From an uncultured Methanosarcinales archaeon (GTDB lineage Archaea > Nanobdellota > Nanobdellia > Woesearchaeales > UBA12501), in contig CAYWPA010000001.1 in assembly GCA_964459835.1 (NCBI GenBank), positions 110,957-174,956 on the forward strand: DNA of 64,000 bases, given 5' to 3'. This document shows positions 26,272 through 51,790 of this stretch, in pieces. A program made the translations under genes and the position numbers. Positions within the stretch are counted from its first letter, which is position 1. Each line of letters begins with the position of its first letter. The notes under the pieces were generated by a model, which was not told the origin of the DNA, did no database searches, and worked only from the letters and a program-made list of their open reading frames with translations.

Positions 26272-26286
26272 ATAAATCAATCCAAG

Positions 26287-26396
26287 CAGCGTGCCAATGC
26301 CGCGCTCTGTTCGCTTCTGCCTTTGTTTTCGCAAACGAGCAACTCTCGCAATCGCCTATTTATCCGAGCACGCCGCCTGGCAGCATTGGCACTTAA
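26287..26396. repeat. GC-rich ~110-bp element with terminal inverted repeats (GTGCCAATGC…GCATTGGCAC), copy A; MITE-like element or structured ncRNA
   Basis: Intergenic. Its reverse complement aligns to 51681-51790 with conserved 33-nt and 24-nt end blocks plus an internal GCGATTGCGA. GC content is far above the local ~35%. Confidence 0.7.
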
Positions 26397-26491
26397 GCTG
26401 GCAGCACTTTGAACAATAATCTTTTTAAAGAAAAGCCCTTATTCTATAGTAATTCGCGAATATTAGAAATTTTAGAAAAAAGAGGATTGTT

Positions 26492-29400
26492 ATGGCTGGT
26501 AAAAAAATAGGCTTAATTCTGATTCTTGCTGTAATTACCATCTTTTCAGCATCTTTTGCCTTTGCACAAAGCGGCTGCGAAGCATGCAGGTCATTGGAGC
26601 AGAGTTGCCAAAATGCAGTTGACCAATGCATTTCAAAAGGAGACAGAGTTTGCTCCACTTACCAAACATCAGTGGGCGGAACAGCAGAATGCAGTGAGGA
26701 TGTGCTGGCAGCTTGCAACCCAATCTCTTCTTTTTGCGAAAACTACTGCGGCGTTCCTTCTTTTCCAGTAAGGGCAGACTGCGATTGTGGGGGAGAGTGC
26801 GACTTTGACAATGATAATTTTATTTCTGTAGAACAAAGTGGAAATGACTGCAATGATTTTAACCCAAACATAAATCCCGGCGCAACAGAAGTGAATGATG
26901 GAATAGATAATAACTGCAACAGAATAATCGATGAAGTTTGCAAAGGGATAACAGACCCGGTAGAAGAAGAAGTGGAGTTTGATTCACAGGTTGTTCCAGA
27001 TGCCCATGATACGAACACAAAATATGTTGAATGGACTGATATTAGCGGCATTGATATAAACAGGGTTGTATTTGACGGCTTTGTTCAGGGTGGAGCCCCA
27101 GGCTCAGGCTCTGTTGGAATATCATGCGTTAAGATTAACGGAAATGTTATAGCAGGAGACTGCAGCAAAGACTTGATAAAAAAAACAGATAAAAAGGAAT
27201 GCAGGTCAGGAAATTCAATAGGAGACACCCTGTATGGGATATTGAACTTGCCTGTTTCAGAAAAAGACGGAACAAACGTAGATGTTATATCAATAAAGAC
27301 TTCTGACTGCGGCAAATCAGACAATGAAGTAAAGCTTACAGTAACTAAGCTAGAAGTTCCAGATATTCCTTCAACCTGCGATTTTGACGGTGATGGAGAG
27401 GCTGATGCATCTGATTTAGATGCAGACGGAGACGGGCAGAAGACAGCTATTGTTGCAAAGGCAGGCTCACAGGCAGGAAAAGACTGCAATGATTTTGACA
27501 AAAAAACCTATTTTGGAGCCCAAGAAGTGTGCAGTGATTATGTAGACAATGACTGCGATGATGGAAAAGGAGCTTTTGATACAGAGCCATTGACAGGGGT
27601 TAATGAAGGATGCGAGGATGAAAACCTGTTCAGCTGCAATTTCAATGGATTTAAGTGGGTCGGGCCGCCGACAAAACTAGGGGGAGGATCATGCTGTGGA
27701 AATAATGCACCAGAATATTTCTCTGCCTGGATAAAAGCAGTTGAGTATATCCCTTCTGCATGCTGGAACATAAATACAGTGAACAATGATGCAATAATAG
27801 GCACCAACTTGCTGGAAGGAACTTCGTGGGCAAGGGAAGTAGGGCCTAAGAATGGAGTAGTAAGCCCAACAGAAGCCTATACTTCAGAAGAATTCTCAAT
27901 TGAATGGAGTGGAGTAACTGAAAGGTCTTTGGCAGTTGAAAATGTAATTCCTGGAACAGAATATGTCTTCTCAGCATATGTAAAAACATTGCAGGAAGAG
28001 CCTAATCCAGAAGGAACATTGTTCAATGTTTTTGTAAACAATCAGTTAGTTAAGTCCTTAAATTACAATGATGATTGGGACAAAATAACATATTCCTTCA
28101 CCCCAACAACAGATACTGTTTTCATAACAGTTGCATCAAATGATGTTGACTACCATGTTATTACATTTAAAAATATGTTTTTGTACAACAAAGATGAAAG
28201 AACAGTTCTTCATTTGAATAGTAAGTTCTACGGCTGCGAAGCCCCATCTGCTATAATGAATCTGAAAAATACAATGACAGGAGAAGATTTGATCGAAACA
28301 AACTATGGCGGAGAAAATAAATTTAATCTTGGAAGTAATTATTGCTCAAAAGCAGGATACTGGAAGAAAAAAGCGGATGGAAAAGACCATGTCATCGAAT
28401 CACTAGCTCCTTTTACAAGCGATGACCCTGAATTTTACCAGGAAGAATGGTGCCCTGAAAACTACTGCCACACCGGCTTTTCATGCGTGACAGGGGAGGA
28501 TTTCCAGACGCCAGGAGAGAGCTTTAATTTAGAAGGAGAAAAGTTCAAATGTGTTCTCGGAGAATGGCAGACTGCGGAACAGAAGCTTGACCAGGACGGA
28601 GATATTGGAAAGGTTTGCGGAAAGAGCCAGTGCTATTATAATGATGGCGTAGAGGATTTGTGCGTAAATGACGGAAACTTTACATTTGACAGCTACTGCC
28701 ATAAAGGAACATGGACAACAAGGACAAATATAATATCGCTTGAATTGCTGAATATTGTTGAAGAGGCAAACACAGATGATTATTCATTATTCTGCGGAAA
28801 TTATGAAGAATCTCTAAACGATTTGCAGTTCTATGTAGGAACATTAAAGGCAGATGCAAGCCAGGCAGTATTGGGAAAGAAAACAGACCAGCCGACAGGG
28901 CCTGTATTTGACTGCGGCTACGGCCAGCACCAAGGGGAAGGAATAGGATGCACAAACAACTATTGTGTCTTGAGTTACTATGACCCAACTGATGATGAAG
29001 AAAAGGTTGTATTTGGAACTTCTTTGAACTATCCAATTGAAGCAACAAGAACAGACAACCCAATTTGGTATGATGTAAACTTCCTCACATTACTGGATGA
29101 ATCAAGAAACACAGAAGGATCCCCACCACACTTTAATTATTGTGATGGTGTAATATCAGAAGGAAGCGACAAGTTTTTAGGATGCTTAGGAAAGGTCGGT
29201 TTTATTGAAGGATCCCCTCATACATTATGGTATAATGCAAAGACAAACAGCGTAATTTACAGCGAGCATAAGGTAACAGTTGGAAATGTTGAATTTGGAG
29301 AGAATTTTGCTGCTTTTATTACAAGCCCCTTCAGCTCAATATTTAACTTTATTATTTCTGTATTCCAGAACAGAGCTGCTTTGCAGGAGCAGGATTACTC

Positions 29401-31765
29401 ATTCATAACAGGCGCTTCCAAGTTCAACAGGATTTATGTTGGTAGGAATGATGAAAGAAGCGTAAGGGGAATAATAGAAAAAGTCGGAGAGAACGAATTT
29501 ATGCTTGCAAGCTACAGAAATGTAGGAACAAATGTCTGCAGCATAGTAGATAAGTACAATAACAAAGTTGCTTCAGGATGCACAAAAAACATAAACTGCC
29601 CTTTGATGTGCACACCTGAGATAGGAGATGACTACTGGAGCTTTACTGTCCAGAGCACCGACACAACAAAAGGGGCATTTGACATCTGGCCTGAACTTAC
29701 CTCAAAGATAAGGCTTGGAGGAGATTATGTTGGTTATGGAAAAACAAGCCTTCCTTCAAGCACCATAGAGATTGTTGGAGGAGATTATGTAACGGCATTG
29801 AATCAGTTCACTGCTTCTGCTGTTATTGAAGATGCAATCGCTTATTCATGGGACTTTGGAGACGGCGCTTTTATAGGATCAGAAGACCCGAATGAGGTTG
29901 CGGAAGTAGAGCATGTCTACAAAGAGGAAGGAACATTTACGGTTGCATTTAGGGTATTGGACAAGGACTTTACAATACACGAAGCAACAAAAACAAAATC
30001 AATATCAGCAATACCAGACGGAGCTCCCTGCATTGACAACAACCCAGACTATTGTCAGGGCGATTACTGTGTAAATGGATTATGCTCTTCACTTCCTTAT
30101 GCTGTAGGGGACGGCGTTTGCGATAATGAAGAAGGAGAATCAATATTAAACTCGGCAGACTGTGAAGGAGATGGAATTTGCGGAATGCAGGAGACATGCC
30201 AGAACTCTCCAAGTGACTGCGGCTTCTGCACAGGAAGCAGCTGCATCAGCCATGGAGAATGCCAGTCTGGCTTGTGTGAAAATAACATATGCGCAGCGCC
30301 AAGCTGCACAACAAGAGCAGGATGCCTTACAGAAGAGCAGTGCGTGCTTAAGTTTAGCAACGGAGATGGATACACATGCGATGCAGCAGCAGGAACAAGC
30401 GTATGCTGCAGCTACAATGGAGATAGCGGTATAAAGACTATTTTATCATTATCCTCAACAACAAACAAAGCAGAAATACCAACACTAAAAGGAGTCTTCA
30501 CAGACGAGTTTGACAAGGAGGCAAAGATAAAATCATCAACAGGGATAACATGCGCCTATACAGAGCAGGACTGCAACGCAGCAGGCTACGGATTCTGTGT
30601 TGGATCAATAAGCGATACAACAAACGGAAACGTTGGAGCATGCGGAACTTATAATATTAACGTATGCTGCAGCTATGGAACAAAAGGAATTTCTGTATGT
30701 GGAGATGGAATAATAGAAGGAAATGAGCAGTGCGAGGATGGCAACACAATAGATGGAGATGGATGCTCCAGAAGCTGCAGGGCTGAATACTGTGGAGATG
30801 GGATTGTACAGCAATCTTCAGATGTTGCAAAAGTGACAAGGATTTTCTTATGGAAGCCTGATCAAACAGCACAAACAGGTACTTGCAGAGGAGAGAACTG
30901 CGAAAAGCTTGGAGGAAATATGCAGCTTTCAGCATGCGCCAATAAAGCATGGGATTATTATGGAGAAGATGCTCCGCCACCACAGCCAGTACAGATGGGA
31001 ACAAAAACATGCAGACAAAATTCTTACAACGAATACAAACTTGAGTTGAAAAAAACAGAGGAATGTGATGATGGAAACGATATAAACACTGATGACTGCA
31101 CAAACACGTGCCAGAATCCTTCCTGCGACGATGGAATACAAAACAACGGAGAAGCAGCAGTTGACTGCGGAGGCCAATGTGCAGCCTGTGCGCTAGGACA
31201 GACTTGCACAGCGGATGCTGACTGCGGAGAAGGAAGCAAATGTCTAAACAACGTATGTGTTGACAAACTTTCATTTGAATTTGAGGTTTATGCAAGCGGA
31301 AATTTAGTTGGCACACAGCAGGCAGCAATTGGATTTGAAGAAGGAGATGCGCATATAGGTGCATTCAGCTATGGAGAGCAGCCAACATTGATAAGATCAA
31401 CAAACCAGCAGGTTGAGGTAAAATTCACAGGGCCTACTGATCAGGGAGTGCCATTAACCGCAACATATTTTGGAGGCGATAAATGCGGAATTGGGGGAGG
31501 CGTAACTTGTCCAAACTCATTTAGGATTTCAGACGAAACTCTAGAAGGCTGCCTGAAAGCAGTAAAAGACAGGCAAGGGTATACCAGCTATGGCTTGGGA
31601 GATTCATCACAGAGCGGAAGCTGCCAATATGAGGAATGCTTTTTCGAGTCTTGCAGAACAAAAACAGCACCAATATATTCCTTCAAAGCAGCAAAATATA
31701 CAATCGAAGTGTTTGCATGCATTGATTTGAACAAAGATAATACTTGCGATTATTTGCAACAATGA
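26492..31765 (+). CDS. Giant secreted cysteine-rich surface protein (1757 aa) with MopE-like metal-binding repeats, a PKD domain and Myxococcus-type cysteine-rich repeats
   Basis: Sec signal MAGKKIGLILILAVITIFSASFAFA. Repeats of the form CNDFNPNINPGATEVNDGIDNNCN. PKD motif …WDFGDG…HVYKEEGTFTV…. Repeat CGDGIIEGNEQCEDGNTIDGDGCSRSC. Module VDCGGQCAACALGQTCTADADCGEGSKCLNNVCV. Confidence 0.7.
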   Translation: MAGKKIGLILILAVITIFSASFAFAQSGCEACRSLEQSCQNAVDQCISKGDRVCSTYQTSVGGTAECSEDVLAACNPISSFCENYCGVPSFPVRADCDCGGECDFDNDNFISVEQSGNDCNDFNPNINPGATEVNDGIDNNCNRIIDEVCKGITDPVEEEVEFDSQVVPDAHDTNTKYVEWTDISGIDINRVVFDGFVQGGAPGSGSVGISCVKINGNVIAGDCSKDLIKKTDKKECRSGNSIGDTLYGILNLPVSEKDGTNVDVISIKTSDCGKSDNEVKLTVTKLEVPDIPSTCDFDGDGEADASDLDADGDGQKTAIVAKAGSQAGKDCNDFDKKTYFGAQEVCSDYVDNDCDDGKGAFDTEPLTGVNEGCEDENLFSCNFNGFKWVGPPTKLGGGSCCGNNAPEYFSAWIKAVEYIPSACWNINTVNNDAIIGTNLLEGTSWAREVGPKNGVVSPTEAYTSEEFSIEWSGVTERSLAVENVIPGTEYVFSAYVKTLQEEPNPEGTLFNVFVNNQLVKSLNYNDDWDKITYSFTPTTDTVFITVASNDVDYHVITFKNMFLYNKDERTVLHLNSKFYGCEAPSAIMNLKNTMTGEDLIETNYGGENKFNLGSNYCSKAGYWKKKADGKDHVIESLAPFTSDDPEFYQEEWCPENYCHTGFSCVTGEDFQTPGESFNLEGEKFKCVLGEWQTAEQKLDQDGDIGKVCGKSQCYYNDGVEDLCVNDGNFTFDSYCHKGTWTTRTNIISLELLNIVEEANTDDYSLFCGNYEESLNDLQFYVGTLKADASQAVLGKKTDQPTGPVFDCGYGQHQGEGIGCTNNYCVLSYYDPTDDEEKVVFGTSLNYPIEATRTDNPIWYDVNFLTLLDESRNTEGSPPHFNYCDGVISEGSDKFLGCLGKVGFIEGSPHTLWYNAKTNSVIYSEHKVTVGNVEFGENFAAFITSPFSSIFNFIISVFQNRAALQEQDYSFITGASKFNRIYVGRNDERSVRGIIEKVGENEFMLASYRNVGTNVCSIVDKYNNKVASGCTKNINCPLMCTPEIGDDYWSFTVQSTDTTKGAFDIWPELTSKIRLGGDYVGYGKTSLPSSTIEIVGGDYVTALNQFTASAVIEDAIAYSWDFGDGAFIGSEDPNEVAEVEHVYKEEGTFTVAFRVLDKDFTIHEATKTKSISAIPDGAPCIDNNPDYCQGDYCVNGLCSSLPYAVGDGVCDNEEGESILNSADCEGDGICGMQETCQNSPSDCGFCTGSSCISHGECQSGLCENNICAAPSCTTRAGCLTEEQCVLKFSNGDGYTCDAAAGTSVCCSYNGDSGIKTILSLSSTTNKAEIPTLKGVFTDEFDKEAKIKSSTGITCAYTEQDCNAAGYGFCVGSISDTTNGNVGACGTYNINVCCSYGTKGISVCGDGIIEGNEQCEDGNTIDGDGCSRSCRAEYCGDGIVQQSSDVAKVTRIFLWKPDQTAQTGTCRGENCEKLGGNMQLSACANKAWDYYGEDAPPPQPVQMGTKTCRQNSYNEYKLELKKTEECDDGNDINTDDCTNTCQNPSCDDGIQNNGEAAVDCGGQCAACALGQTCTADADCGEGSKCLNNVCVDKLSFEFEVYASGNLVGTQQAAIGFEEGDAHIGAFSYGEQPTLIRSTNQQVEVKFTGPTDQGVPLTATYFGGDKCGIGGGVTCPNSFRISDETLEGCLKAVKDRQGYTSYGLGDSSQSGSCQYEECFFESCRTKTAPIYSFKAAKYTIEVFACIDLNKDNTCDYLQQ

Positions 31766-33045
31766 AAAAGGCCCAATTAACTTCTTTTGCAATGATTGGC
31801 GTTGCCATGATTATAATCTTTGGCACAATCTATTATTTCAGCGGAGAGTATGCTGAGCAGGGCTTTGAGACAGAAGCGCAGAAGATTTTTTCTGACATTG
31901 AAAAGACAGGCTCAATTGAAAGCTATGCTTCTTCATGCCTGAAGAAGGTTTCATCAGAAGGGATAATGTTTCTTGGAAAACAAGGGCTAAGGCTTTTTGA
32001 AGAGCAGACAAATCCTGAAGCACCAACACCAACTACCCAGCTATCAATTGTTGATTTTAACAATTACAAAATAAGCCTTGCTGTTTCTGACGCAAAAGAA
32101 AAGGAGGTTCCGCAATACCCTTATGGTTTTGAAAAGCTGTTTATCGACGGAGAGGAGAACAGGGCTTCTGTATACGGAAAAAGCGAAATTCCTGCACTGT
32201 GCCAGAAAGGAGGGGTGAATGATGTTGAGGTTACAGAAACAACACCAGGGGTCTGCACATCTCCAATAAGGCCAAGGACAAGGGCATTTATGGAAAATTC
32301 ATTACAGGAACAGCTGCAGGCATACATTGAAAACAACTTAGATACATGCGTAGACAAGTCTTTCCTTAAAGAAGTTCCGGGGTTTGTTGTCGACACAAAA
32401 AAGCCTTCTGTAAATGTAACTATGGGAACAAAAGATGTATTGGTTGAGGCAGCTTATCCTATTTCAGTAAAAAAACAAGACGAGGAAATAATAAAATTTT
32501 ATGATTTCCAAACAACGCTTCCTGTTAGATTAAGCAGAATTTACCATGTTGCTGATTATTTAATTTACTTTGACACAAAATTCCTTGGATTCAATGTTTT
32601 TGAAGACATAAAAAAATCAGTTGATTGGGATGAAAACATTGAAATTAAAATGGAAAACACAGATGCAAGCAAAGTCATTACAATAACAGACCAGGCATCA
32701 AGGATTGATGGCCTTCCTTTTGCTGTTCACCTTGCAATGCCAAACAGAAACCCCGCTTTGGAGATGATTGAGACAGCAGAAGAATATAAAATCGGAGACA
32801 GGCTAGCTATTGAGCCAAAGGCATACGACCCAGATGATAATTCAGTACTAACCATTGAATATGAGCCAGGAACCCCACAAAGTGCAGCTTTTGTAAACAG
32901 GATAAAGCAAAGCATGGATGAAACAGGCAATATCAATTATATTCTGGCAGAAGAAGACAAAGGCTTGTGGAGGGTTAAAGCGGCTGTCGCAGATGAAAAA
33001 GGAAAAGAAGACTGGCAGGATTTGGTGATTAAAGTTACCGACTAA
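31762..33045 (+). CDS. Type IV pilin-like protein (class III signal peptide candidate), 427 aa
   Basis: N-terminus MKKAQLTSFAMIGVAMIIIFG fits the archaeal prepilin motif [KRDE][GA][ALIFQMVED][ILMVTAS] (K-A-Q-L) followed by a hydrophobic helix. The gene overlaps the end of the upstream giant gene. Confidence 0.5.
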   Translation: MKKAQLTSFAMIGVAMIIIFGTIYYFSGEYAEQGFETEAQKIFSDIEKTGSIESYASSCLKKVSSEGIMFLGKQGLRLFEEQTNPEAPTPTTQLSIVDFNNYKISLAVSDAKEKEVPQYPYGFEKLFIDGEENRASVYGKSEIPALCQKGGVNDVEVTETTPGVCTSPIRPRTRAFMENSLQEQLQAYIENNLDTCVDKSFLKEVPGFVVDTKKPSVNVTMGTKDVLVEAAYPISVKKQDEEIIKFYDFQTTLPVRLSRIYHVADYLIYFDTKFLGFNVFEDIKKSVDWDENIEIKMENTDASKVITITDQASRIDGLPFAVHLAMPNRNPALEMIETAEEYKIGDRLAIEPKAYDPDDNSVLTIEYEPGTPQSAAFVNRIKQSMDETGNINYILAEEDKGLWRVKAAVADEKGKEDWQDLVIKVTD

Positions 33046-33121
33046 AACCACCACAATATTTTTAAATAAACTGCCCTCTAAAAGCCTTGTTGGGATTGAT
33101 TGGAGTAAAAGCGGTGAATAG

Positions 33122-36100
33122 ATGAAAAAGAGGCTTTTGTTACTTGGCTTAATAGCTGTATTTTTTGCGATTCTTGCATCAAATGCTTACGCAGGATGTT
33201 GTGTTGCAGAAGCAGGATGCACAGGTCCAGCAACAGGCCCAGCAGATTGTGAAGTTGGGGAAACATATTCTTCAAATGATTGCTCTGAAATCGTAACATG
33301 CGATTTAGGAGTCTGCTGCGGTGTAACTCCTGCAAGAAACTATTTGTCAAGAAGCGAATGTGCAGGCATTGATGGATCATTCTACACATTGTATTCACAT
33401 ACACCAAAAAACCTATTATTAATAGAACAAGAAGATCCTGTTGCTTTTTGTACTGATAAACCAACACCTTGTACATTAAACTCATGCGGAGGACCTGTTC
33501 CAGCAGAATGTTTATGCGGAGATACTGTTGCATCAGCAGGAGATTATTGCTGTTCTGAAAATGTCAGAACAAATGCATTAAGGATTTATGAAAATCAGGT
33601 AGAATGCACAACCTCACCAAGCTTATGCGAAGCTCCTGAAATTCCAACTGTATGCACACAAGATGAAACTCAAATATGCACAGATGGAAGCATAATTGTA
33701 ACATATCAATGCATTAACGGAGCACTGACAGCTACAGGAAATATATGCCCGACACCAGCATGCACTGCGCCTGTATTTGAAGAATGTCCTGACCGCTCAA
33801 CAATAAGAACATATAACTGTGAAAATGGATTATTGGTTGCGACGCAGGAAGAATGCCCTCTGCTTCCTCCAACAATAGCTTTAGAAGGAACATGTGGAGA
33901 CGGAACAGTCAATTCTCCTAACGCTGCAGGGCAGTTTGAACAGTGCGAAGCAGACAGCGGCTGTAGTGATTATAAGGGACTGGAAGGAGTATGCACAGCA
34001 TGCGAATGCGTATACAGCTGCGTTGACCCTACTGTTTCTCCAAGCTTAGCAGTAAAGCATGAAAGGGATTTTAAGCTGACTTTAAACTGGCAGTTGAACA
34101 CCCAATGCGCAGTCGACAAGTTCTCCATATATAAATGCTCAACAAAAATAGGAGCAAGCTGCACAGGATTTGAGATAATAAATGAAGTAACCGAAGAAAC
34201 AGGAAAGCTAAGCCACAGCTATGAGGATTACGATGTAAAGGCGAACATGCAATACTGCTACAAAGTTGATGCTGTTTATGGAGACGGCACAACAACATCT
34301 TCAGAAACAGTATGCGTAAATTCAGGCGATGAAGGATGCATGGAGTTTGACAATGAGTTCTGCGAAGAAAATAAAAGATATTATTGCGATGAAACAACAA
34401 CAAACAAAAAAACATTGGTTGCAGACTGCGAGGAAAGGACATGCATTGGCCCGAATGAAAACGGGGCAACAATATGTGCAGGCACAGGTGAATGCGATAA
34501 GTGCAATGACTTATTTGGCCTGTTTGGGCAGGAAGGGACAGCACAGTCTTTCTTTATCGGAACAAAAGATATGCTTAGCTGCATTTCACAAATTCCATCA
34601 TGCTATTTAGATACTACAAAAACAAATATAGACAAATTCTATTTCTGCAAAGAAACAGAAAGCTGCTATGACTACAAATCAGAAGGCGCGTGCAATAACA
34701 ATGACAATACATGCCAGGTTGGAGAGTGTGAATGGATAAGCGTAAACGAGGAATTTGGAACAGGCGTATGCAGGCCTGTAGATGAAAATGTGCAGCAATG
34801 CGGAAAATGCAATGAGGACGCAGAGTCAGGAAGCAGCTTCTTCGGAGCTTGCACCCCTGAAATGTGCATGGCTTATGGAGACTGCTATACTGGATTTAAT
34901 GGAGCGTGCATGGATAAGAAAAAGACAGGATGCTGGGAATATTATACAGAAGAACAGTGCGCTCCTGACGGAAACGTTCTTGTAGATGCTGTTTATGAAG
35001 GCGAAACAAGAGTAGGAAACACAAACAACATACTGGAAAGGAGCAATGATGCTGCAGGATTTGGATTATGCAAGTGGAACGGCATTTCATGCTTTAAGGA
35101 TGCAGACAGCAACGATATGCCTGACTGCAGAAATGATGGAGAAGATGAAGCCTGCAAAGCAGACAACATGATTCCCACAACAACGCTTATTATAGATAAT
35201 ATTCCTTCTGTAAATGGCAAGCTTCTGCTGCCAAAAACAATAAACATTCCTGTTTCTGTTTCAGAAAGGGCAAAGACCTACTTCTGCATTTCAGGCACAG
35301 AATGCTACCCTGACAAAAGAAGCGCATGCGGAATACAGGAAAATGCAGAGATTCAAAGCGGAGAATACACTCTTTATTATTATTCGGAGGACTACTCACA
35401 CAATCTTGAAGCTGTACAGGCAAAAGAAGTAGTGATTGATTCAGATGATCCTGAAATAAACATTATTCTTTCTTCACAAGAGCTGACAAACAGAAACCAC
35501 AATGTTGAGGTAATATTGCAGGCAAATGAGGTAGTAAGGTGCAACGGTCATATGGAAACACAGCTTGGCCAGCAGGTTGGATCAAACACAGATGTAGAAG
35601 GCCTTTCAGGCCTTGAGCTGGAAAATGAAATAAACGGAATTGGAACAGGATTTGGCATAACATACTACAACATAAAAGATGACAAGTATTATTTTGTATA
35701 TTCCTGCAATGATGAGGCTGGAAACAAGGCTGAAGGTGAAAAAGAAATAACCCTTGACAGCAACAAAATACACAACCCTCTTCCTTTTGGGCCTGTAGGC
35801 ACAAATACAGTTACTTTAAGCGTCCAGACAGACAGCGCAGCAGATTGCAGATATGGAACAACAACAAGCTTCGACAGTATGACTCCTTTCACAGAGACAG
35901 GCAGCACTCAGCATTCAGCTGTTGTTGGAGTGGAAGCAAATAGGCTGTATAATTATAATGTCAAGTGCAAATTTGGAACAAATACTGTTGGAAATGAAGG
36001 AGACAGAATAATATTTTCTTCAGACAAAACATCCCCAAGCGTAAAGATTGTTACAGTAACAGGAGCAGACTTCAACACAGAACTAAGCTATGGTGATGAC

Positions 36101-38689
36101 CAGACATTCTATATTGAATGTATTGACAGGCCTTTTGAGATTGGCAGGTTTAACTTTGGCTGCAAAGAAACAACATATACAATAGGAACACCAAATACAT
36201 TTAATGGCGGTGTAAGCAATGCTATCACAATCACGGACACCCAGGCAATAAGGATTGTCGCAGCAGACAATGGAGGAAATGCAAATGTTCCGCCTGTATT
36301 TATTCCAATAAAGATAGAGAAAACAAAGCCAGAGCTGACAATAGAGCTGCTTAATTTCCCTGCAGGAAAAACGTCTCTTGAAATACTTGGCGCAGGAGAT
36401 TATATAGTAAAGGTAAAGTCAAACAAGCCTCTTGGCTCATTAGAAGCATTTGCACACGTAAACGAAATTCCTGTAGAAGTCAAGCAATTTAAGTCAACTT
36501 CTGTATTGAATACAGAGTTTGAGGGAATAATACATATTCCGTTTGCATTTGAAAGCGAGCTGTTTGAAGATATAATTGCAAACGGAAGCATAAGAGTAGA
36601 TGGATTGATCGGAACTTACGGCTCATTATGCGCAGACACTTCTACAACATTTGACCTTGATATAAGCAAAAGACTTAACTTTATTGTTGATACAAGAGGA
36701 GCAGAGCTTGAGCTGAAGCCAAGCATTGAAAACTACGCATCTATGGAATACCCAGCATATAAATATTCTGACTCTGATGTATACTACACAAGCGACCCAA
36801 TGTTTTTTGTTTCAGGAACAGTTGCAAGTTTTGTTGGAGGAGTACAGTTCTATGCAGCTAATGGGCATGATTTTGTTGAGGAGTTAGGAATACCTAAGGC
36901 AAGCTACAGCTTGGGAGAGAATGCAAAGGAAATGCCTGTAGACTATATCCTGGCAAGTGCAGCAGGAGAAATAGGAAGCAAGTCAATATTTGTTCCTGCG
37001 CAAAGCCTTCCAAACGATTTTGCAGCAGGAAAATATTACCTAAGATTCTCAGGCCATGAAAGAGAAAGCTACGGACATTACCATGAATTTTATGGGGTGG
37101 AAAAAGTCGATATAAAAGCATATAATGCAAACATAACCTTGGCTTCTGAACTAGAGGATAACATTGACTTTGGAGAGCCGATTGACTTGTTCACAAAACC
37201 ATATCCCTACAACTGGTTTGGAGCAAGAGTAAACATAAGCGAAGGATATCCTGAGGTAAGGGAAACTTTATTCTATGCAGGAGCAGGAGGGGAAAGAACC
37301 AAACAATACAAGCTGTTCCTTGAATTATATCCTCCTTATGTCATAAGGCAGGATCCAAAAGATTTCATAATAAATGACAAAAGAAAGCCTTTGTCAATTT
37401 TAGTAAGGGATGACCCAAGCGGAGCGCTTCTGGATGAAAATACAATTAGGCTTATGCTTACGCAGGATGGAAAGAGAAAATCAATCAAACCAGCAGTAAC
37501 AAAGTTCCAGAGCGGCGGCTTTTGGTTCTATAACATTTCATATGCTCCAAAAGAAGACTACACAGGCCTTAACATTGCAAACTTTACAGGAAGGGACAGG
37601 GCAGGCAACCCTTTAACAGCAACAGACGGTGGAAAGCCTGCATTTGCATTCTCTATCAACGATAATATTCCTAACACTCCTTTAATTACATTTGAAGGAG
37701 GAGCAGAGCACGATGGAATATGGTATTCAACTACAACGCCACCTTTCACAATAAAGTTCTATGAAGATGAAGAAGTTGGATTAAGAGGCATCTTCCTTGA
37801 TAATGAAGACCATCAAGTTCCTGCACAATGCAATAAGCTTGAAAGAAACACATGGAAATGCACACTTGACAATCCTTTGCAGCCAAGAGTGTTTGAATCT
37901 GATGGAATAACTGTGATTGAAGATGACATGTTTGACATAATTGTAAGGGCGCATAAAATATTTGCTCCAGGTTTGACAGGAGATGACGGAAGATATCACA
38001 ATCTGCTTGTCATTGACAACATAAAGCCAGAGATTGTAAACATGAATTATAATCCTATAACAAGGCAGGAGAATAAGGATTACACATTAACATCAACTGT
38101 GCACAATGAGCAGCACGACTTAAAAGGAGAATTGTTCTACAAAGGAATAGAGTACCCATTAAGGCAGGCTGCAAACATCGGCTCATTCTACCAATTCGTA
38201 TGGCAGGTTCCATTCTTTGGCATCGGAGCAGATGTTGAAAGGCCGCTTCCGTTTGTTGTAAGGCTTTGCGATTATGCAGGAAACTGCGATGACTTCACAG
38301 AAGGGATGGTTACTATTGACCTTACTCCTCCTGATATCACAAAAGTAGAAGTTAGGGTATTGGAATCGCCAAGGCCAGAGCCTGAGTTTATAACGCCTGT
38401 AACAAGGATTTCAGTAAGCGGAAGCTTTACAGATCCTGACGTAAGCAGCGTATACCTAACCCCTGGAGACTATGACCCTTACACAAATACATATACTCCA
38501 ATAGCCCCAGGAACAGTCACTGGAAAAGACTTCACAATTTTTGTAACCCTAAAAGGCCCACCTCAAAACGTAACCTTAAATCCTATTAACATCACTTTCA
38601 TAGACGAAGCAGGATACCAGGCAAGGAAATCATACAGGGTTTATGCAGACTTGGAAAAGCCGTTTGCAGAAAGAATACAGATAAGATAA
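33122..38689 (+). CDS. Giant secreted protein (1855 aa): Cys-rich N-terminal ~550 aa followed by many beta-rich (Ig/fibronectin-like) domains
   Basis: Sec signal MKKRLLLLGLIAVFFAILASNAYA. Dense Cys spacing in the first third, long Cys-poor beta-strand-rich remainder, no TM anchor. Confidence 0.7.
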   Translation: MKKRLLLLGLIAVFFAILASNAYAGCCVAEAGCTGPATGPADCEVGETYSSNDCSEIVTCDLGVCCGVTPARNYLSRSECAGIDGSFYTLYSHTPKNLLLIEQEDPVAFCTDKPTPCTLNSCGGPVPAECLCGDTVASAGDYCCSENVRTNALRIYENQVECTTSPSLCEAPEIPTVCTQDETQICTDGSIIVTYQCINGALTATGNICPTPACTAPVFEECPDRSTIRTYNCENGLLVATQEECPLLPPTIALEGTCGDGTVNSPNAAGQFEQCEADSGCSDYKGLEGVCTACECVYSCVDPTVSPSLAVKHERDFKLTLNWQLNTQCAVDKFSIYKCSTKIGASCTGFEIINEVTEETGKLSHSYEDYDVKANMQYCYKVDAVYGDGTTTSSETVCVNSGDEGCMEFDNEFCEENKRYYCDETTTNKKTLVADCEERTCIGPNENGATICAGTGECDKCNDLFGLFGQEGTAQSFFIGTKDMLSCISQIPSCYLDTTKTNIDKFYFCKETESCYDYKSEGACNNNDNTCQVGECEWISVNEEFGTGVCRPVDENVQQCGKCNEDAESGSSFFGACTPEMCMAYGDCYTGFNGACMDKKKTGCWEYYTEEQCAPDGNVLVDAVYEGETRVGNTNNILERSNDAAGFGLCKWNGISCFKDADSNDMPDCRNDGEDEACKADNMIPTTTLIIDNIPSVNGKLLLPKTINIPVSVSERAKTYFCISGTECYPDKRSACGIQENAEIQSGEYTLYYYSEDYSHNLEAVQAKEVVIDSDDPEINIILSSQELTNRNHNVEVILQANEVVRCNGHMETQLGQQVGSNTDVEGLSGLELENEINGIGTGFGITYYNIKDDKYYFVYSCNDEAGNKAEGEKEITLDSNKIHNPLPFGPVGTNTVTLSVQTDSAADCRYGTTTSFDSMTPFTETGSTQHSAVVGVEANRLYNYNVKCKFGTNTVGNEGDRIIFSSDKTSPSVKIVTVTGADFNTELSYGDDQTFYIECIDRPFEIGRFNFGCKETTYTIGTPNTFNGGVSNAITITDTQAIRIVAADNGGNANVPPVFIPIKIEKTKPELTIELLNFPAGKTSLEILGAGDYIVKVKSNKPLGSLEAFAHVNEIPVEVKQFKSTSVLNTEFEGIIHIPFAFESELFEDIIANGSIRVDGLIGTYGSLCADTSTTFDLDISKRLNFIVDTRGAELELKPSIENYASMEYPAYKYSDSDVYYTSDPMFFVSGTVASFVGGVQFYAANGHDFVEELGIPKASYSLGENAKEMPVDYILASAAGEIGSKSIFVPAQSLPNDFAAGKYYLRFSGHERESYGHYHEFYGVEKVDIKAYNANITLASELEDNIDFGEPIDLFTKPYPYNWFGARVNISEGYPEVRETLFYAGAGGERTKQYKLFLELYPPYVIRQDPKDFIINDKRKPLSILVRDDPSGALLDENTIRLMLTQDGKRKSIKPAVTKFQSGGFWFYNISYAPKEDYTGLNIANFTGRDRAGNPLTATDGGKPAFAFSINDNIPNTPLITFEGGAEHDGIWYSTTTPPFTIKFYEDEEVGLRGIFLDNEDHQVPAQCNKLERNTWKCTLDNPLQPRVFESDGITVIEDDMFDIIVRAHKIFAPGLTGDDGRYHNLLVIDNIKPEIVNMNYNPITRQENKDYTLTSTVHNEQHDLKGELFYKGIEYPLRQAANIGSFYQFVWQVPFFGIGADVERPLPFVVRLCDYAGNCDDFTEGMVTIDLTPPDITKVEVRVLESPRPEPEFITPVTRISVSGSFTDPDVSSVYLTPGDYDPYTNTYTPIAPGTVTGKDFTIFVTLKGPPQNVTLNPINITFIDEAGYQARKSYRVYADLEKPFAERIQIR

Positions 38690-38718
38690 TTTGATAAGAC
38701 AATTGGATAATATGGCAG

Positions 38719-41700: not shown

Positions 41701-41907
41701 AAAAAGCTTACAGATATTGAAAAAGGAGAAGTTGATGAAAAGCTTGACAAGATAGCTGCAAAATATGAAAAAGCAGGAGCAGGGGATGAAATGTTTGAAA
41801 AGCTTGAAGGATATATAGAAAAAGAGACAGGCAAGACAGAGGAAAGGCTTGAAGAGCTGGCAAAGAAGAAGCGCGCAATTAAAAATGCAAGGAAGAAGTC
41901 TAAGTAA
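38719..41907 (+). CDS. Giant membrane-anchored surface protein (1062 aa): Ig-like repeats, Cys-rich CGGxC modules, Asp-rich Ca-binding (TSP3-like) repeats, C-terminal TM anchor and charged cytoplasmic tail
   Basis: Signal MKKIKTSLIIFASIMFSIAAASAAA. Module CGGSCPACELGKSCVVDFDCASGYCENGIC (x3, similar to the module in the 26492 protein). Repeat DTDGDGYNDGVEVRKKTNPLDPTD. TM ILMIAGLLLLLGGGGYLIY, then a KE-rich tail. Confidence 0.7.
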   Translation: MKKIKTSLIIFASIMFSIAAASAAAIEFQTIGKSVPEIEIKFQEEVYIIDAQFYGIFDPEGIGLNVSAVEDPFITYAPYVNIIDAKFTSDLFNKTFIFKPVQSLPKGVYVLQVDVEDIVGNENTILKYFENKEPIFSIDIANPRHGTATSTTFDIIIETRFPGPYVAQCKYALSTDPKFDFSFPGLSPLNSPNGTTHIKEGYTKSGLAGPDPLYVVCRDSLGRVNQRRFDLTIDTTPPNVGIVFEPPKIIEYVGGKIQVNLKALPDDPSICKYNYIENPVGTPIYEQLIPFTGFDVKNPKAFKKEHVQNIVLPANEQASYMFFVACENKAGMRSPIESKDLIVDLKAPMELTVINPPQYTNKTNTSIYLKTNKDSYCTYNNLQMSTNINLRAKDHKAEMGVLGEGRHTISFYCIGPAGSFGQLEYSFSIDTTPPSVPEVNGSFFTCYADRFSFTPPVIFSSADEQSGIKHYLYSIKSSSGLMISNNSISAGELKEVDAKGENITETGTYTLTAKAVNNVGIESKESTGIKITYDPDRIECKETDPPTVTASVEYIESRAEVTLLCQDESGCDNNSFYYGLSEAGKCSPTVKLPSPFKVTVLKTQSICYNVSDIYGNRATGSKQITITVSGSCNNGILDSGESDVDCGGSCPACELGKSCVVDFDCASGYCENGICSEATCSDGKLNGPVNNKESDVDCGGYCVFEGKACDVGKSCISNDDCASLFCNPNEKTCMESTCDDGFQGGDEEGVDCGRSCDAICGDMDGDGMPDDWEDEYGLDKNNPDDALLDNDNDDLINVEEYNRGTNPLNEDTDGDGYNDGVEVRKKTNPLDPTDYPISPIGTILMIAGLLLLLGGGGYLIYANQDKLKDLFKPKEARQAPGIRPVAPSDIAAQKRAEDERKRQAEMRRVQLEERRKKLQELSGKIKDRRERREKADREKREKLFGKFAPKREIEAVQKEEAETGAERPGGWISISALKERLAPKKEKAKEAEEFKKLTDIEKGEVDEKLDKIAAKYEKAGAGDEMFEKLEGYIEKETGKTEERLEELAKKKRAIKNARKKSK

Positions 41908-42889: not shown

Positions 42890-42906
42890 ACAATAAAAAA
42901 TACAAA

Positions 42907-44794: not shown

Positions 44795-45073
44795 ATGCTG
44801 AGCATGCAGAAAATAACCGAAACTTACGGCATGAAAGTCTTTACCGATTCTGGCGAATACTTTGGAGATGTTGAGGAATCAATCCTGACAAAAACAAAGG
44901 TTTTCGGATGGAGGGTAAAGGCAACAAAAAATTCTTATCTTGCAAAAGTTCTTGGCTCTGCAAAAGGAGTTATTGTTCCGCACCAGCTTGTAAAGTCTAT
45001 AGGAGACATAATGATAATAAGCAGGGCAGCAATGCCTTCCTATACTCCTGAAGAAGAAAAGGCAGCGCATTAG
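44795..45073 (+). CDS. PRC-barrel domain protein
   Basis: ~92 aa from the ATG at 44795; the pattern …ITETYGMKVFTDSGEYFGDVEESIL…VIVPHQLVKSIGDIMII fits a PRC barrel. Confidence 0.45.
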   Translation: MLSMQKITETYGMKVFTDSGEYFGDVEESILTKTKVFGWRVKATKNSYLAKVLGSAKGVIVPHQLVKSIGDIMIISRAAMPSYTPEEEKAAH

Positions 45074-46101: not shown

Positions 46102-46136
46102 AAACTATAAAAACAAGCGCTTGCTGCTATTAATTA

Positions 46137-46182
46137 TTGGGTGGATTGTTGTTTGGTTAGTGCCCGGAAGTTGATTCTAACA
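46137..46182 (+). promoter_or_regulatory. 46-bp conserved upstream element, copy 1 (ttgggtggattgttgtttggttagtgcccggaagttgattctaaca)
   Basis: Identical at 44 of 46 positions to 47598-47643. Ends 19 bp before the ATG of the 46202 gene. Confidence 0.75.
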
Positions 46183-46201
46183 ATATATCACAGAGAAGAC
46201 T

Positions 46202-47572: not shown

Positions 47573-47597
47573 ATATTACCTGCACCTTACTGTTTTT

Positions 47598-47643
47598 GTT
47601 GGGTGGATTGTTGTTTGGTTAGTGCCCGGTGATTGATTCTAAC
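47598..47643 (+). promoter_or_regulatory. 46-bp conserved upstream element, copy 2
   Basis: See copy 1. Ends 25 bp before the ATG (47669) of the HAD hydrolase gene. Confidence 0.75.
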
Positions 47644-47668
47644 AGAAAAAGTTACGATAGGGGGCACT

Positions 47669-48571: not shown

Positions 48572-48585
48572 AATTAATTCTCATC

Positions 48586-48630
48586 TAGCCTACCGTTGCC
48601 ACGTTCCCGGATGGTTTTCTATCCGGAAGG
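48586..48630 (+). terminator. Strong imperfect hairpin (TGCCACGTTCCCGGAT-ggttttct-ATCCGGAAGGTGGCA) followed by ttttaaaaa; putative terminator or regulatory stem-loop
   Basis: ~15-bp stem with one bulge between the HAD gene stop and the next gene start. GC-rich relative to its surroundings. Confidence 0.35.
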
Positions 48631-51161
48631 TGGCACGGATTTTAAAAATGGGATTTGTGACAGGGTTCAGAAGGCTGCCAAAGGCAGAGCAGCTGGAGAT
48701 TTATGGAAACCATGATTCAAACAGAATTAGATTTTACACTTACAGTACAGAAACCCAAAGCTCAGGCTATCTTGATAAAATTGTTGAGCATGAATTTGTA
48801 ACAAAGTATGCAAGAAACAAAGATGCAAGGGCAAGGCAGGAAAAGCTTTGCCAAAGCCTTGCGCAAAATCCAAAGTTTAAAGGAGTAAGGTTTGAGCAGC
48901 ATGAAGGAACACTTCATGCATTTGCGCATCCTGAGGATAAAAACATTCTTCCTACAGCATTTATTGCTCAGAGAAAAAAAACATACACGCCAAGATCAAG
49001 AACTTTCAAAGCATATGAAGAGGCAAAAGCCCTTGCCCTCAAACATAGCAACTGGCTAAAGCAGAGCAATATAAGTTACGGCATAAAAAATACTTTAACT
49101 GGAGACTTCTACATAGAGCTTATATGCAAAAAGTCTGACTTGCGATTCATAGAGCAAAACGGCAATGCTCTTTTTACTGTTTATGAAATGGTTTCAGAAG
49201 AAATATCTCATGGGGATGCACTTGCACTCCATCATAGCTTGGAAGAGCACTTGAGGCATGCTGACATAAGGCTTGTTCAGCCTGAAGGGGAAAAGCCTTA
49301 CATAAGGGCTTTTGCAAACAAAGCAGGAACAATAGCACTGAAAAGAAAAGGGCTTAGGCCTGTTTTGGAGAATGGAAAACCAAGAATAAATTCTAAAAGA
49401 AATATACAGGATGTTCTAAGCATGGATTCCCCAACAAGAATGCTGAGATGGAAAGTACCTGTTTTTACGCTTGAAGAGGAGCTGGAAAAAGCTCCAAAAG
49501 ATCCTGAAGATGCGCATTCAATACACTCCTTTGGCAAAAAACAGGCAAGCCTTGAAGATATTTTAAAAGCAAAGAGGGCAGTGATTGATATAGAGGTTCA
49601 GGACTATGACAAGCCGGGCATAGAAAAGGTTTACGCAGCTGTATTCTACACACCCGACGAAAAAACTGTGTTTACAATTTATGATCCCGGCATTTCAGAA
49701 ATAAACGGCGCAAAAGTTGTTGTCTGCAAAAATGACAAAGAATTGCTGGAAAGGCTTGCAGAAAAAGAAAGGGAATACGATCCATTGTTTGTCATAGGCC
49801 ATAACATAATGGCTTATGACAGACTCAAACTGAAAAGCCTTGCAGCAAAAAAAGGCTTAAATTACTCTGTTAGCAGCGATGAAAAAGAGCCAAGAGTCCA
49901 TGCAACTTTCAGGGAATTTGACAAAAGGGTCATATCACCATCAAGAATCGAGATTGATACTTTGTATTTACGGCAGCTTAATCATCTTAAAAACAACAAG
50001 CTTGAAACGCATGCAAAAAGGGCGATGCTGGATTTTGAAAAAGAGCATAGCTATGTAGAGCTGAGAATCCTTGTAGAACACGCAAAAAAAGGCGATAAAG
50101 AGGCAGCAAGGAAGCTTGCAAAATATGTTGTTGAAGACGGCAGGGTTTCTTTGCAGCTTGCAGAAAAATACATGGAAAACATAATAATGAAAAGCCTTGC
50201 GCTCAAAAGAAGCCCCTCTGAAATATGCAAGTCAGACATGCCTGATCTTTTTGATGAAAAAAGAAGAAGGGATTTCTTTGCAAGAAGAAAGGCCTTCACA
50301 AGGCCAATAAAGCATGAATACACACTTGAAGAAGAGGCTGTAAAATTATTTAAAGCAAGAAAAGGCCTTGAATTTGAGAGAGCGGTTTTTGATAACACTG
50401 CAGCAATATACCCTCTTTTTGTAATCGAGGGGCTTAAGCCTCTTATAGAACACGATGAGCAAATGCATAAGCTGTACAGAATAATGCATTCGTCACTAAA
50501 CCCAGACATACAGTTTGACATTGCAAAGTTCCTTTCTGCTTTTCTCCAGTACAGTTATTTTGAAAAAATAAGGCTAGGAAGCAGCCCTGTTGCTTACGTC
50601 TTAATGGACAGCATAGAAAAAAACCTGCAGAAAACACTTGACGCTATGAAAGATGCTTCACTTATTAATATCACAAAAGATCTTATTTACATTTCATCAG
50701 CTCCGGAAATAAGCAAAATAAATGGAGATTTGTGCTTAACAATAGAGCACGGAAGGGCAATAAGCATAGCACCAGGAAAGATCATAATGAAAGGAAAAGG
50801 CGCAGATATATATCAGGGCATTGATCCAAAGGGAAGAGGAAATACTGTGTTTGAAGTGCATTTTATAGAAAGCTTAGTGAACCTAGTACTTAATGGCGGC
50901 TCTGTAGAAGATATAGGGGCAGAGCTTGACAACCTTAAAGATGAATTTGGAGATACATTCTACAATGCAATGTATGAAAAGTTTGGAAGAATAATGAGGC
51001 CTATGCTGTATAATAAGGATGCAGAACATACACAAGGGCTTTTGGTATCAAAAGTTTCATATAAAAAAACAAAAAAACATGGGCAGGTACCTTCTTACAG
51101 AGGTCGCAAAAGAAGAAAAATTGCAGAAAATAATACGCAAATGACTTTAAAACTTATTTAG
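48630..51161 (+). CDS. Large protein (843 aa) with a DEDDy-type 3'-5' exonuclease core; possibly a highly divergent family-B-polymerase-like protein
   Basis: Exo I AVIDIEVQD. Exo II FVIGHNIMAYDRLKL (HNxxYD). Exo III AKYVVEDGRV (YxxxD). Downstream, weak motif-A-like VFDNTAAIYPLF and motif-C-like YVLMDS. No clean KxxxNSxYG or DTD. Confidence 0.5.
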   Translation: MARILKMGFVTGFRRLPKAEQLEIYGNHDSNRIRFYTYSTETQSSGYLDKIVEHEFVTKYARNKDARARQEKLCQSLAQNPKFKGVRFEQHEGTLHAFAHPEDKNILPTAFIAQRKKTYTPRSRTFKAYEEAKALALKHSNWLKQSNISYGIKNTLTGDFYIELICKKSDLRFIEQNGNALFTVYEMVSEEISHGDALALHHSLEEHLRHADIRLVQPEGEKPYIRAFANKAGTIALKRKGLRPVLENGKPRINSKRNIQDVLSMDSPTRMLRWKVPVFTLEEELEKAPKDPEDAHSIHSFGKKQASLEDILKAKRAVIDIEVQDYDKPGIEKVYAAVFYTPDEKTVFTIYDPGISEINGAKVVVCKNDKELLERLAEKEREYDPLFVIGHNIMAYDRLKLKSLAAKKGLNYSVSSDEKEPRVHATFREFDKRVISPSRIEIDTLYLRQLNHLKNNKLETHAKRAMLDFEKEHSYVELRILVEHAKKGDKEAARKLAKYVVEDGRVSLQLAEKYMENIIMKSLALKRSPSEICKSDMPDLFDEKRRRDFFARRKAFTRPIKHEYTLEEEAVKLFKARKGLEFERAVFDNTAAIYPLFVIEGLKPLIEHDEQMHKLYRIMHSSLNPDIQFDIAKFLSAFLQYSYFEKIRLGSSPVAYVLMDSIEKNLQKTLDAMKDASLINITKDLIYISSAPEISKINGDLCLTIEHGRAISIAPGKIIMKGKGADIYQGIDPKGRGNTVFEVHFIESLVNLVLNGGSVEDIGAELDNLKDEFGDTFYNAMYEKFGRIMRPMLYNKDAEHTQGLLVSKVSYKKTKKHGQVPSYRGRKRRKIAENNTQMTLKLI

Positions 51162-51585
51162 CTAGAAGCTTGCTAAGCTCTTCTTTTGCTGTTTCATCAA
51201 CTTTTGAGAATAATGTTTTAAGGCTTGCCTTTAAGCCAGATTTATCAACAATCAGGCTGTGGGTAGCAGGGTATATTGTCCATGATTTTTCTGTTTTTGA
51301 AAAAGGATTCACAAAATACATGGAAAAATGCCTCTTAAATCCCACTATTTTGTCCCAATTATCTACAAGGACATCAAAGTTCTCTTTTGTGTTATAGACA
51401 ACCAGGCCGCATAACTCATAGCTTTTTATCTTTTCCAGGCTCTTGCCAATATCATCAATAAAAGGCTCTACAAAAAAAACCTGCTCCTTGCCGTCTTTCA
51501 GCTTCGCCTTTATGAATTCACCATCAGCTTTAACCGATTCATATCTTCTTAGAATTAGGTCTTTGTTCTTGACAAACCTTTCCAT
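51154..51585 (-). CDS. Hypothetical protein (143 aa)
   Basis: Convergent with and overlapping the exonuclease gene by 8 bp; no recognisable motif. Confidence 0.4.
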   Translation of the reverse strand: MERFVKNKDLILRRYESVKADGEFIKAKLKDGKEQVFFVEPFIDDIGKSLEKIKSYELCGLVVYNTKENFDVLVDNWDKIVGFKRHFSMYFVNPFSKTEKSWTIYPATHSLIVDKSGLKASLKTLFSKVDETAKEELSKLLAK

Positions 51586-51680
51586 CCACTCAGCAAGGTA
51601 AGCTTTCAGATCTGCGATACTATCACCTTTTTTTCATTGAAATTTTGCTTTTTAACTTTATATATTTTTCTAAAACACAG

Positions 51681-51790
51681 TTAAGTCAAGTTAAGCGCCA
51701 ATGCTGCCAAGCGACGTGCCCTAAAAAAGAAGCGATTGCGACAGATCATAGGTTGCGAGAGCAAAAACATAAACGAACAGAGCGCAGCAT
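51681..51790. repeat. GC-rich ~110-bp TIR element, copy B (inverted relative to copy A at 26287-26396)
   Basis: ttaagcGCCAATGCTGCCAaGCGaCGTGC…GCGATTGCGA…CGAACAGAGCGCaGCATTGGCACG. The flanks also form an inverted TTAAGTC…GACTTAA pair. Confidence 0.7.

Follow-up and report, generated by a model that had tools for sequence, protein, structure and literature searches.

Among the small palindromic repeats of bacteria, Rickettsia palindromic elements (RPEs) are in many cases truly intragenic, and the ERIC and REP extragenic palindromes, found in transcribed or intergenic DNA, number from tens to hundreds of copies. Prokaryotic MITEs, defined as elements of less than 500 bp with terminal inverted repeats (TIRs) of 4–30 bp, are intergenic, form hairpins and have direct repeats that erode as an insertion ages; they are typically AT-rich and include SM1–SM4 of Sulfolobus, Correia/NEMIS of Neisseria and RUP of pneumococcus (PMC10969869). 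Here, an element of 107 nt is described that is present twice, in inverted orientation, in a 64-kb stretch of archaeal DNA (the whole stretch analysed, referred to as the window). The window belongs to a Woesearchaeota-like genome (Woesearchaeota-type DPANN). To our knowledge, hardly any small interspersed repeats have been described from DPANN archaea.

Sequence and position of the two copies

Copy A of the element was located at 26290–26396 on the plus strand, where it reads C-GTGCC...GGCAC-TTAA. Copy B occupies 51691–51797 and has the same orientation when read on the minus strand. A preliminary description of the locus had reported two mutually reverse-complementary copies, and this was borne out by a gapless alignment with 84 of 106 positions identical and no indel. 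Its coordinates for copy B (51681–51790) were 7–10 nt off, and the 3 and 1 mismatches given for the end blocks were corrected to about 5 (first 33 nt) and 2 (last 24 nt). Conservation is higher at the ends of the element than in its centre, and the longest stretch identical between the copies measures 13 nt. At ≤3 mismatches, the end blocks matched only copies A and B in the window (0.00–0.02 matches expected by chance). The pair forms the longest inverted repeat of the window (I1; arms of 122 nt, 76% complementary). Both copies are intergenic. The earlier statement that the element is GC-rich in an AT-rich genome holds, with 55% GC in copy A and 50% in copy B versus 0.33–0.44 in 2-kb windows across the stretch.

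The 13-bp terminal inverted repeat (GTGCCAATGCYGC / GCAGCATTGGCRC) contains one non-Watson-Crick position per copy; a shorter repeat had been claimed before. As assigned by sequence and pairing, the left arm of copy A (GTGCCAATGCCGC) lies at 26291–26303 and the right arm (GCAGCATTGGCAC) at 26380–26392, followed by a conserved TTAA at 26393–26396. In copy B, the left arm (GTGCCAATGCTGC on the minus strand) lies at 51784–51796 and the right arm (GCAGCATTGGCGC on the minus strand) at 51695–51707, followed by TTAA at 51694–51691. The internal sequence said to be shared was found in both copies as a conserved core, TCGCAATCGC (GCGATTGCGA on the other strand), at 26346–26355 in copy A. The TCGCAA of this core recurs at 26329–26334 of the same copy.

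Logan assemblies of two sequencing runs contained sequence identical to the element copies of the window (whole copy B in contig L006, the first 70 nt of copy A in L008 and 65 nt of copy B in L007), and the element is therefore no assembly artefact of a single data set. The contigs L008 and L007 look low-coverage, and L008 begins in adapter. Recombination between copies A and B was considered for the breaks of these two contigs inside the element and was rejected, as, besides the apparent low coverage, the copies share no 31-mer and the break of L008 lies in A-specific sequence.

Searches for further copies and partner enzymes

No third copy was detected in the window using an nhmmer profile or a covariance model (R1, filters off). 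The nhmmer profile also found no further copy in approximately 340 kb of fetched related loci, and none was present in 3.4 kb more of the same genome (L037). An exact-pattern scan with the 5' block yielded five matches in GTDB genomes and nine in JGI metagenomes. These were attributed to chance because all of them lie in GC-rich bacteria and the rest of the element is missing. Patterns for the 5' block, the 3' block, the TIR pair and the internal core gave none or only chance matches in viral contigs including IMG/VR, and blastn searches of plasmid and phage collections with the element returned nothing relevant. Within the 64-kb window, no transposase, integrase, recombinase, invertase, Cas1 or IS with matching ends was found. 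The only recombinase-related match in the window was a weak generic HTH match in a 109-aa ORF at 25007–25336.

Empty site and synteny in relatives

The site of copy A was compared with that of a relative (L018) whose Rpp30 is 85% identical at the amino acid level and whose flanking intergenic DNA is approximately 90% identical to the window. The relative lacks the element: its Rpp30 stop is followed by the same TATA box and then by the start of the giant gene. In the alignment, the window carries 142 extra nt at 26262–26403, which are made up of 29 nt, the 106-nt element and 7 nt. In the window, Rpp30 takes its final two codons and its stop from the extra 29 nt. The additional 29 and 7 nt have no counterpart at copy B, and a second copy of the 29-nt flank, which could be a donor flank, was not found in the window. 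At least one copy, copy A, is probably a recent small insertion. From sequence comparison we infer that it was probably inserted after the split from the L018 lineage, which is the simplest reading, rather than deleted in the relative.

Gene order in this region is conserved. In more distant Woesearchaeota, the order PP-loop/Rpp30/giant genes is kept, and the order Rpp30/giant1/433-aa-like/giant2 is kept in family-level relatives with approximately 50% Rpp30 identity. Spacers between Rpp30 and the giant gene measure 44–53 nt in L025–L032, and the gap upstream of the 146/151-aa homologues in relatives measures 47–57 nt; neither contains the element. Across the position of copy B, a relative that lacks the element likewise has the 143-aa gene next to, and divergent from, the HhH-GPD and RNase H-like genes.

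Flanking sequences

A TATA-like box of the giant gene (TTTTTAAA) is located at 26422–26429 on the plus strand and is separated from the TTAA end of copy A by 25 nt. The corresponding box of the 143-aa gene (TATATAAA) is located at 51657–51664 on the minus strand; here, 26 nt lie between the box and the TTAA end of copy B. At both copies, the TTAA end faces the TATA box of the neighbouring gene in the same relative orientation, and this equal spacing is an oddity of interest. Since the empty-site relative has the box at copy A as well, this box is host sequence.

At copy A, the best direct repeat in the flanks (TTTGAAYAA; TTTGAATAA/TTTGAACAA) lies 14 and 11 nt off the ends and is not significant (p ~0.17). 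At copy B, an adjacent direct repeat is lacking, and the flanks form an inverted repeat instead. The arms of this outer repeat, ACAGTTAAGTCAA at 51677–51689 and its partner at 51809–51821, pair over 13 nt with 1 mismatch (p ~0.007 by shuffling), and the copy B unit extended by them folds with a z of -3.65. A nested second element at copy B was considered and found unsupported, the outer inverted repeat having no other copies in the window.

RNA and coding analyses

The whole window was searched against Rfam at gathering score, and the element had no match. The only match in the window at this score was an intron-containing tRNA at 18170–18320. Searches of both loci at E≤10 on either strand returned noise only, so that the Rfam comparison proposed in the preliminary description yielded no family even at this threshold. 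ARAGORN found nothing, and K-turn, H/ACA, C/D box, tRNA-like and 5S-like features were not seen on inspection by eye.

Folding was compared with shuffled sequences. For the two copies, z was -1.43 and -0.68 on the strand read in the earlier work and -2.68 and -2.71 on the opposite strand. On the opposite strand, a 7-bp stem that includes G.U pairs can form between the two UUGCGA hexamers, its closing pair being G.U in copy A and C-G in copy B. Between the copies, which are two sequences only, one double change fits the minus-sense structure and five one-sided, G.U-compatible changes fit the plus-sense structure. The proposal that a variable position reflects retained RNA pairing stood in part. 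A/G opposite T gives a G.U pair only on the strand for which pairing had been proposed, but C/T opposite A gives a G.U pair only on the opposite strand. Each variable stem position is thus G.U-compatible on a different strand, and the stem therefore picks no strand.

Both copies are open in frame +3 (in the orientation of the earlier work) and in the antisense frame that has the same third positions. Permutation tests based on amino-acid and synonymous changes gave P values of 0.09–0.45 (any frame, P 0.34), and no coding signal was significant. The only frame open in both copies that contains an ATG, which is present in copy B only, was used as a profile against 1.84 billion representative proteins and had no match at E≤0.001. 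A coding element was rejected on these two grounds, the tests being non-significant in every frame and the peptide profile without a protein match.

Nature of the element

The element is best explained as a lineage-specific, non-autonomous, non-coding palindromic interspersed repeat of approximately 107 bp that is MITE-like, a reading to which we assign a probability of about one half. A MITE-like mobile element had been among the earlier suggestions. It agrees with the occupied site of copy A and the empty orthologous site in L018, with 13-bp TIRs in both copies (within the range of 4–30 bp), with the intergenic position and with a small size of 107 bp combined with no significant coding signal. 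Against it stand the missing clean target-site duplication, the lack of a cognate transposase in the window, the number of copies seen (two in the 64-kb window and the 3.4 kb of L037) and the length of the insertion at copy A, which is 142 nt and not 107. With a GC content of 55% and 50%, the element also departs from the AT-richness of MITEs, which is a typical and not an obligatory trait. A transposase encoded elsewhere in the genome would recognise the terminal repeats together with the conserved subterminal blocks, and the element would have moved in trans into short intergenic regions near promoters. The inverted orientation of the copies and their spacing of 25 kb would be incidental, and the copies would represent neither the ends of a composite element nor att or inversion sites. 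Should such a family be confirmed, it would be of use in tracing both recent genome change and the transposase that moves the element.

That the two diverged copies are genes for a small structured non-coding RNA is unlikely, although this is the nearest competitor; transcription would most plausibly start at the TTAAG end on the opposite strand (minus for copy A, plus for copy B). Such a gene would account for a GC-rich element in an AT-rich genome, for the gapless 106-nt alignment and for the better folding of the opposite strand in both copies, on which alone the 7-bp stem UUGCGAN/NUUGCGA is formed, with its closing pair changed on both sides. A TATA box lies 25–26 nt from the TTAAG end of both copies, which is about the distance from TATA box to transcription start in archaea. 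However, these boxes belong to the neighbouring protein genes, the box at copy A is found in the empty-site relative, and its A-rich, BRE-like side, as judged from the sequence, faces the protein gene. One compensatory pair from two sequences is no evidence, and five one-sided changes fit the other strand; nor does the element belong to an Rfam family at E≤10. The element is dispensable in the close relative L018 and missing from all fetched relatives, and is therefore no housekeeping RNA.

The TATA spacing also bears on a cis-acting role close to promoters: as a DNA module at a fixed distance upstream of the TATA box of the adjacent gene, and perhaps an exapted mobile element, the repeat would bind a regulator or chromatin protein and co-regulate the giant surface-protein gene and the 143-aa gene. 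We regard this as improbable. The palindromic ends and the direct TCGCAA repeats would offer the kind of symmetry used by dimeric DNA-binding proteins, and MITEs that act as regulatory inserts are documented, e.g. the Correia elements (PMC10969869). However, the same TTAA end facing a TATA box at 25 and 26 nt was noticed post hoc and in two cases only, no candidate binding protein was identified, and the giant and 143-aa genes have no known functional link. Moreover, L018 has the same giant gene with the same promoter and lacks the element.

It is similarly doubtful that mobility and function are combined in one repeat of DPANN archaea, a small-RNA gene or a regulatory cassette that moves and lands in fixed orientation at a fixed distance of approximately 25 nt from a host TATA box. 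In this case, the captured promoter would drive divergent transcription of a structured RNA of approximately 107 nt beginning at the TTAAG end, or the promoter of the neighbouring gene would be modulated. We know of no described archaeal counterpart of such a promoter-targeting, promoter-hijacking repeat family.

Scarcely credible is that the copies are the ends of one large unit, be it as inversion or recombination sites or as termini of a 25-kb transposon, casposon-like element or island: they are inverted, bracket the giant surface-protein genes and a PolB-like gene and form the longest inverted repeat of the window, but the promoter and giant gene just inside copy A are orthologous to those adjoining Rpp30 at the empty site of L018, the order Rpp30/giant1/433-like/giant2 is kept at approximately 50% Rpp30 identity, the 143-aa gene, located just inside copy B, and genes beyond this copy are still divergent as in the ancestral arrangement, integrase, invertase, Cas1 and transposase are missing from the window, no identical run exceeds 13 nt, the block has a GC content of 0.38–0.44 that hardly differs from the flanks, and the independent contig L006 has the arrangement of the window at copy B. 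The adhesin-like and other genes listed in the preliminary description do lie between the copies, but they form no discrete accessory unit, and the suggested recombination or inversion sites failed on the same points, as both junctions cross conserved synteny and the window is without a recombinase. The main practical result is negative: the 25 kb between the copies are conserved chromosome, and this Woesearchaeota lineage has conserved the cluster of giant surface-protein genes that follows Rpp30, which is not a mobile or invertible island.

Comparison with known systems

With integron attC sites, the element shares a hairpin-forming sequence of approximately 100 bp whose ends are conserved and whose centre varies, and one of its ends, TTAAGY, fits TTRRRY. 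Unlike in attC, the opposite end has no complementary RYYYAAC box, and each copy stands singly, the two being inverted and separated by 25 kb. When the full arrangement was tested (RYYYAAC...GTTRRRY at both ends, a cassette array and IntI), one end fitted, and neither an array nor an integrase was present in the window. Like ERIC and REP extragenic palindromes, the element is an imperfect palindrome and GC-richer than its surroundings; no RAYT-like gene was seen.

The likeness to RPEs includes the palindromic structure, a size of approximately 100–150 bp and the net length difference between copy A and the empty site, which is 141 nt and a multiple of three. In addition, one frame is open through both copies; at copy A, it extends from the Rpp30 stop as far as the position of the ancestral stop. 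The element differs in that copy A follows the functional stop codon and is therefore no translated part of Rpp30. Its coding signal is non-significant, and its peptide has no match in protein databases.

Compared with prokaryotic MITEs, the element differs in being GC-rich, in having no clear target-site duplication and no partner IS in the window, in the two copies seen and in the 29 and 7 nt of the insertion at copy A that are not common to copy B. It resembles them in its size of approximately 100 bp, its non-coding and intergenic nature, its 13-bp TIRs and its predicted stable hairpin, and, like them, it is present or absent between close relatives and adjoins promoters.

Repeat pair

The two mutually reverse-complementary copies of the repeat were confirmed at 26290-26396 on the plus strand (copy A) and 51691-51797 on the minus strand (copy B), in the orientation of the preliminary description, which had placed copy B 7-10 nt off. 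Aligned from GTGCC to TTAA (106 nt), the copies were identical at 84/106 positions without a gap. They differed by 12 transitions and 10 transversions, with a longest identical run of 13 nt. The pair was the longest inverted repeat of the window, and both end blocks were unique to A and B in the window at ≤3 mismatches (chance expectation 0.00-0.02). As described, the element was GC-rich in AT-rich surroundings, with a GC content of 55% (A) and 50% (B) vs 0.33-0.44 in 2-kb windows. The same element sequence was present in Logan assemblies of two sequencing runs. One Logan contig (L008, ERR3478686_3659777) opened with an Illumina adapter at positions 1-21 (AGACGTGTGCTCTTCCGATCT), and the ends of these contigs are unfit to serve as biological breakpoints.

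Each copy was closed by a short inverted repeat of 13 bp (GTGCCAATGCYGC / GCAGCATTGGCRC), with one non-Watson-Crick position per copy. One variable position of this stem had been called compatible with retained RNA pairing. It does form G.U on plus-sense RNA; the other forms G.U on minus-sense RNA, so the stem is silent on strand. Copy B lay inside an outer 13-nt inverted repeat (ACWGTTAAGTCAA, 51677-51689 / 51809-51821; p ~0.007), which had no further copies in the window; the copy extended by it folded with a z of -3.65. At copy A the stem extended outwards by 4 bp only.

Synteny

The gene for RNase P protein Rpp30 was located directly left of copy A. In a close relative with an empty site (JGI contig L018; Rpp30 85% identical), the orthologue of the 1757-aa giant gene right of copy A (63% identity, first 209 aa) started 70 nt beyond the Rpp30 stop. 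Intergenic DNA was ~90% identical, TATA-like box included, and the window carried 142 extra nt (26262-26403) with copy A within. Since L018 aligned around these nucleotides, the DNA inside of A is ancestral neighbour DNA. We infer that copy A is an insertion and not a deletion in the relative.

Relatives at ~50% Rpp30 identity (L024, L025, L027 and others) retained the gene order of the window: large minus-strand protein, PP-loop ATPase, Rpp30, homologue of the 1757-aa protein (giant1), 433-aa homologue and giant2 homologue. Rpp30-to-giant spacers were 44-53 nt long in L025-L032. The giant secreted-protein cluster downstream of Rpp30 (26492-41907) was syntenic with the Woesearchaeota relatives L024, L025 and L027, with proteins just 22-32% identical; this surface-protein locus is conserved but evolves fast.

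Immediately on the inner side of copy B, the 143-aa gene had a homologue (61% identity) in locus L035, divergent from HhH-GPD and RNase H-like genes, an arrangement shared with the window; the element was absent there. Across these three genes, identities were 45-61%. L035 (GCA_042576465.1, JBHPEW010000149.1) is labelled 'candidate division KSB1 bacterium', probably a binning error; the named homologues of the 143-aa protein mostly carry the label Woesearchaeota.

The copies had been proposed to bound a 25-kb block, accessory or invertible, which synteny at both junctions refutes: neighbours are conserved across the A and B junctions, and the block is therefore conserved chromosome. A and B are not its ends, and at both junctions it has kept the ancestral orientation.

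Other features of the window

The window is archaeal and also encodes Cdc6/Orc1, both PolD subunits, MCM and TBP; source-named Rpp30 homologues were labelled Woesearchaeota. A tRNA gene interrupted in its anticodon loop by an 81-nt intron (18170-18320, plus strand; Rfam tRNA, 42.1 bits) was missed entirely by ARAGORN. An AT-rich palindromic repeat (TTTATTTTCTATATAGAAAATAAT, 91-96%) occurred at 4605-4637 and 5817-5849, on either side of a TrmB-like gene. It lay a short way upstream of cdc6/orc1 (6103-7308), with PolD next in line, and may belong to a replication origin or to regulator sites. The two 'repeat-preceded unknown genes' of the preliminary description follow a 49-nt direct repeat (46134-46182 and 47596-47644, 92% identical; TTGGGTGGATTGTTGTTTGGTTAGTGCCCGG..GATTGATTCTAACA), which stops ~20-25 nt ahead of their ATGs at 46203 and 47670 and could serve both genes as a 5' leader, operator or promoter module. 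The 843-aa ORF at 48630-51161 (plus strand) weakly matched the exonuclease domain of family B DNA polymerases (E 1e-5), which makes it a divergent PolB or else a PolB-like protein that has been inactivated.

Nature of the element

No third copy was found in the window (nhmmer; covariance model, filters off), nor were further copies found in fetched loci of relatives and of the same genome, ~340 kb in total (nhmmer), in GTDB genomes and JGI metagenomes (a single exact-pattern scan of each, with the 5' block), in IMG/VR (pattern scans) or in plasmid and phage collections (blastn).

Most likely, with a probability of about 0.5, the repeat is non-autonomous DNA that is mobilized in trans: a transposase, presumably of a partner IS, would bind its 13-bp ends and its conserved subterminal blocks. 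Among 40 window ORFs scanned against Pfam, there was no transposase, integrase, invertase or Cas1.

A small structured RNA is an unlikely alternative reading of the same repeat. In both copies, the strand opposite to that first described had a better fold than shuffled sequences (z ~-2.7, vs -1.4 and -0.7 for the strand first described), and it forms a 7-bp UUGCGAN/NUUGCGA stem via G.U pairs, one pair being altered on both sides. However, the strand first described fits five one-sided changes, in a comparison of two sequences, and the element lacks its own promoter: nearby TATA boxes serve neighbouring genes, and that at copy A is already present in the empty site. The Rfam search suggested in the preliminary description matched no family to the element, even at E≤10.

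Nor is the element demonstrably coding: one frame was open across both copies (ATG start at B), as was the antisense frame with the same third positions, but permutation tests for coding signal were not significant and the peptide profile found nothing at E≤0.001 among 1.84 billion representative proteins. At copy A, the open frame is that of Rpp30, running past TGA 26269-26271 to TGA 26410-26412 (the ancestral stop position), with a net length of +141 nt versus the empty site.

The TTAA end of copy A and the giant gene's TATA box (26422-26429) were 25 nt apart. At copy B, 26 nt separated the TTAA end from the TATA box of the 143-aa gene (51664-51657), with the same end facing the TATA box at both copies. 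This spacing would fit a promoter-near target preference, a regulatory function upstream of the gene, or a captured TATA box from which the element is divergently transcribed; with two cases only, and a pattern spotted after the fact, it is no more than a lead.

Comparison with known elements

Prokaryotic MITEs are defined by size, terminal inverted repeats, intergenic location, hairpin potential and presence/absence polymorphism (PMC10969869). The element matches them in all these features, and to this extent the earlier MITE-like interpretation stood. It departs from them in being GC-rich, which is atypical; no partner IS was found, no clean target-site duplication flanked the copies, and the insertion at copy A included 29+7 nt without counterpart at B. 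The repeat is genuine and of an ordinary kind: it adds a new, lineage-restricted member to the small palindromic or MITE-like repeats. In the frame that stays open past the Rpp30 TGA, copy A resembles in-frame Rickettsia palindromic elements.
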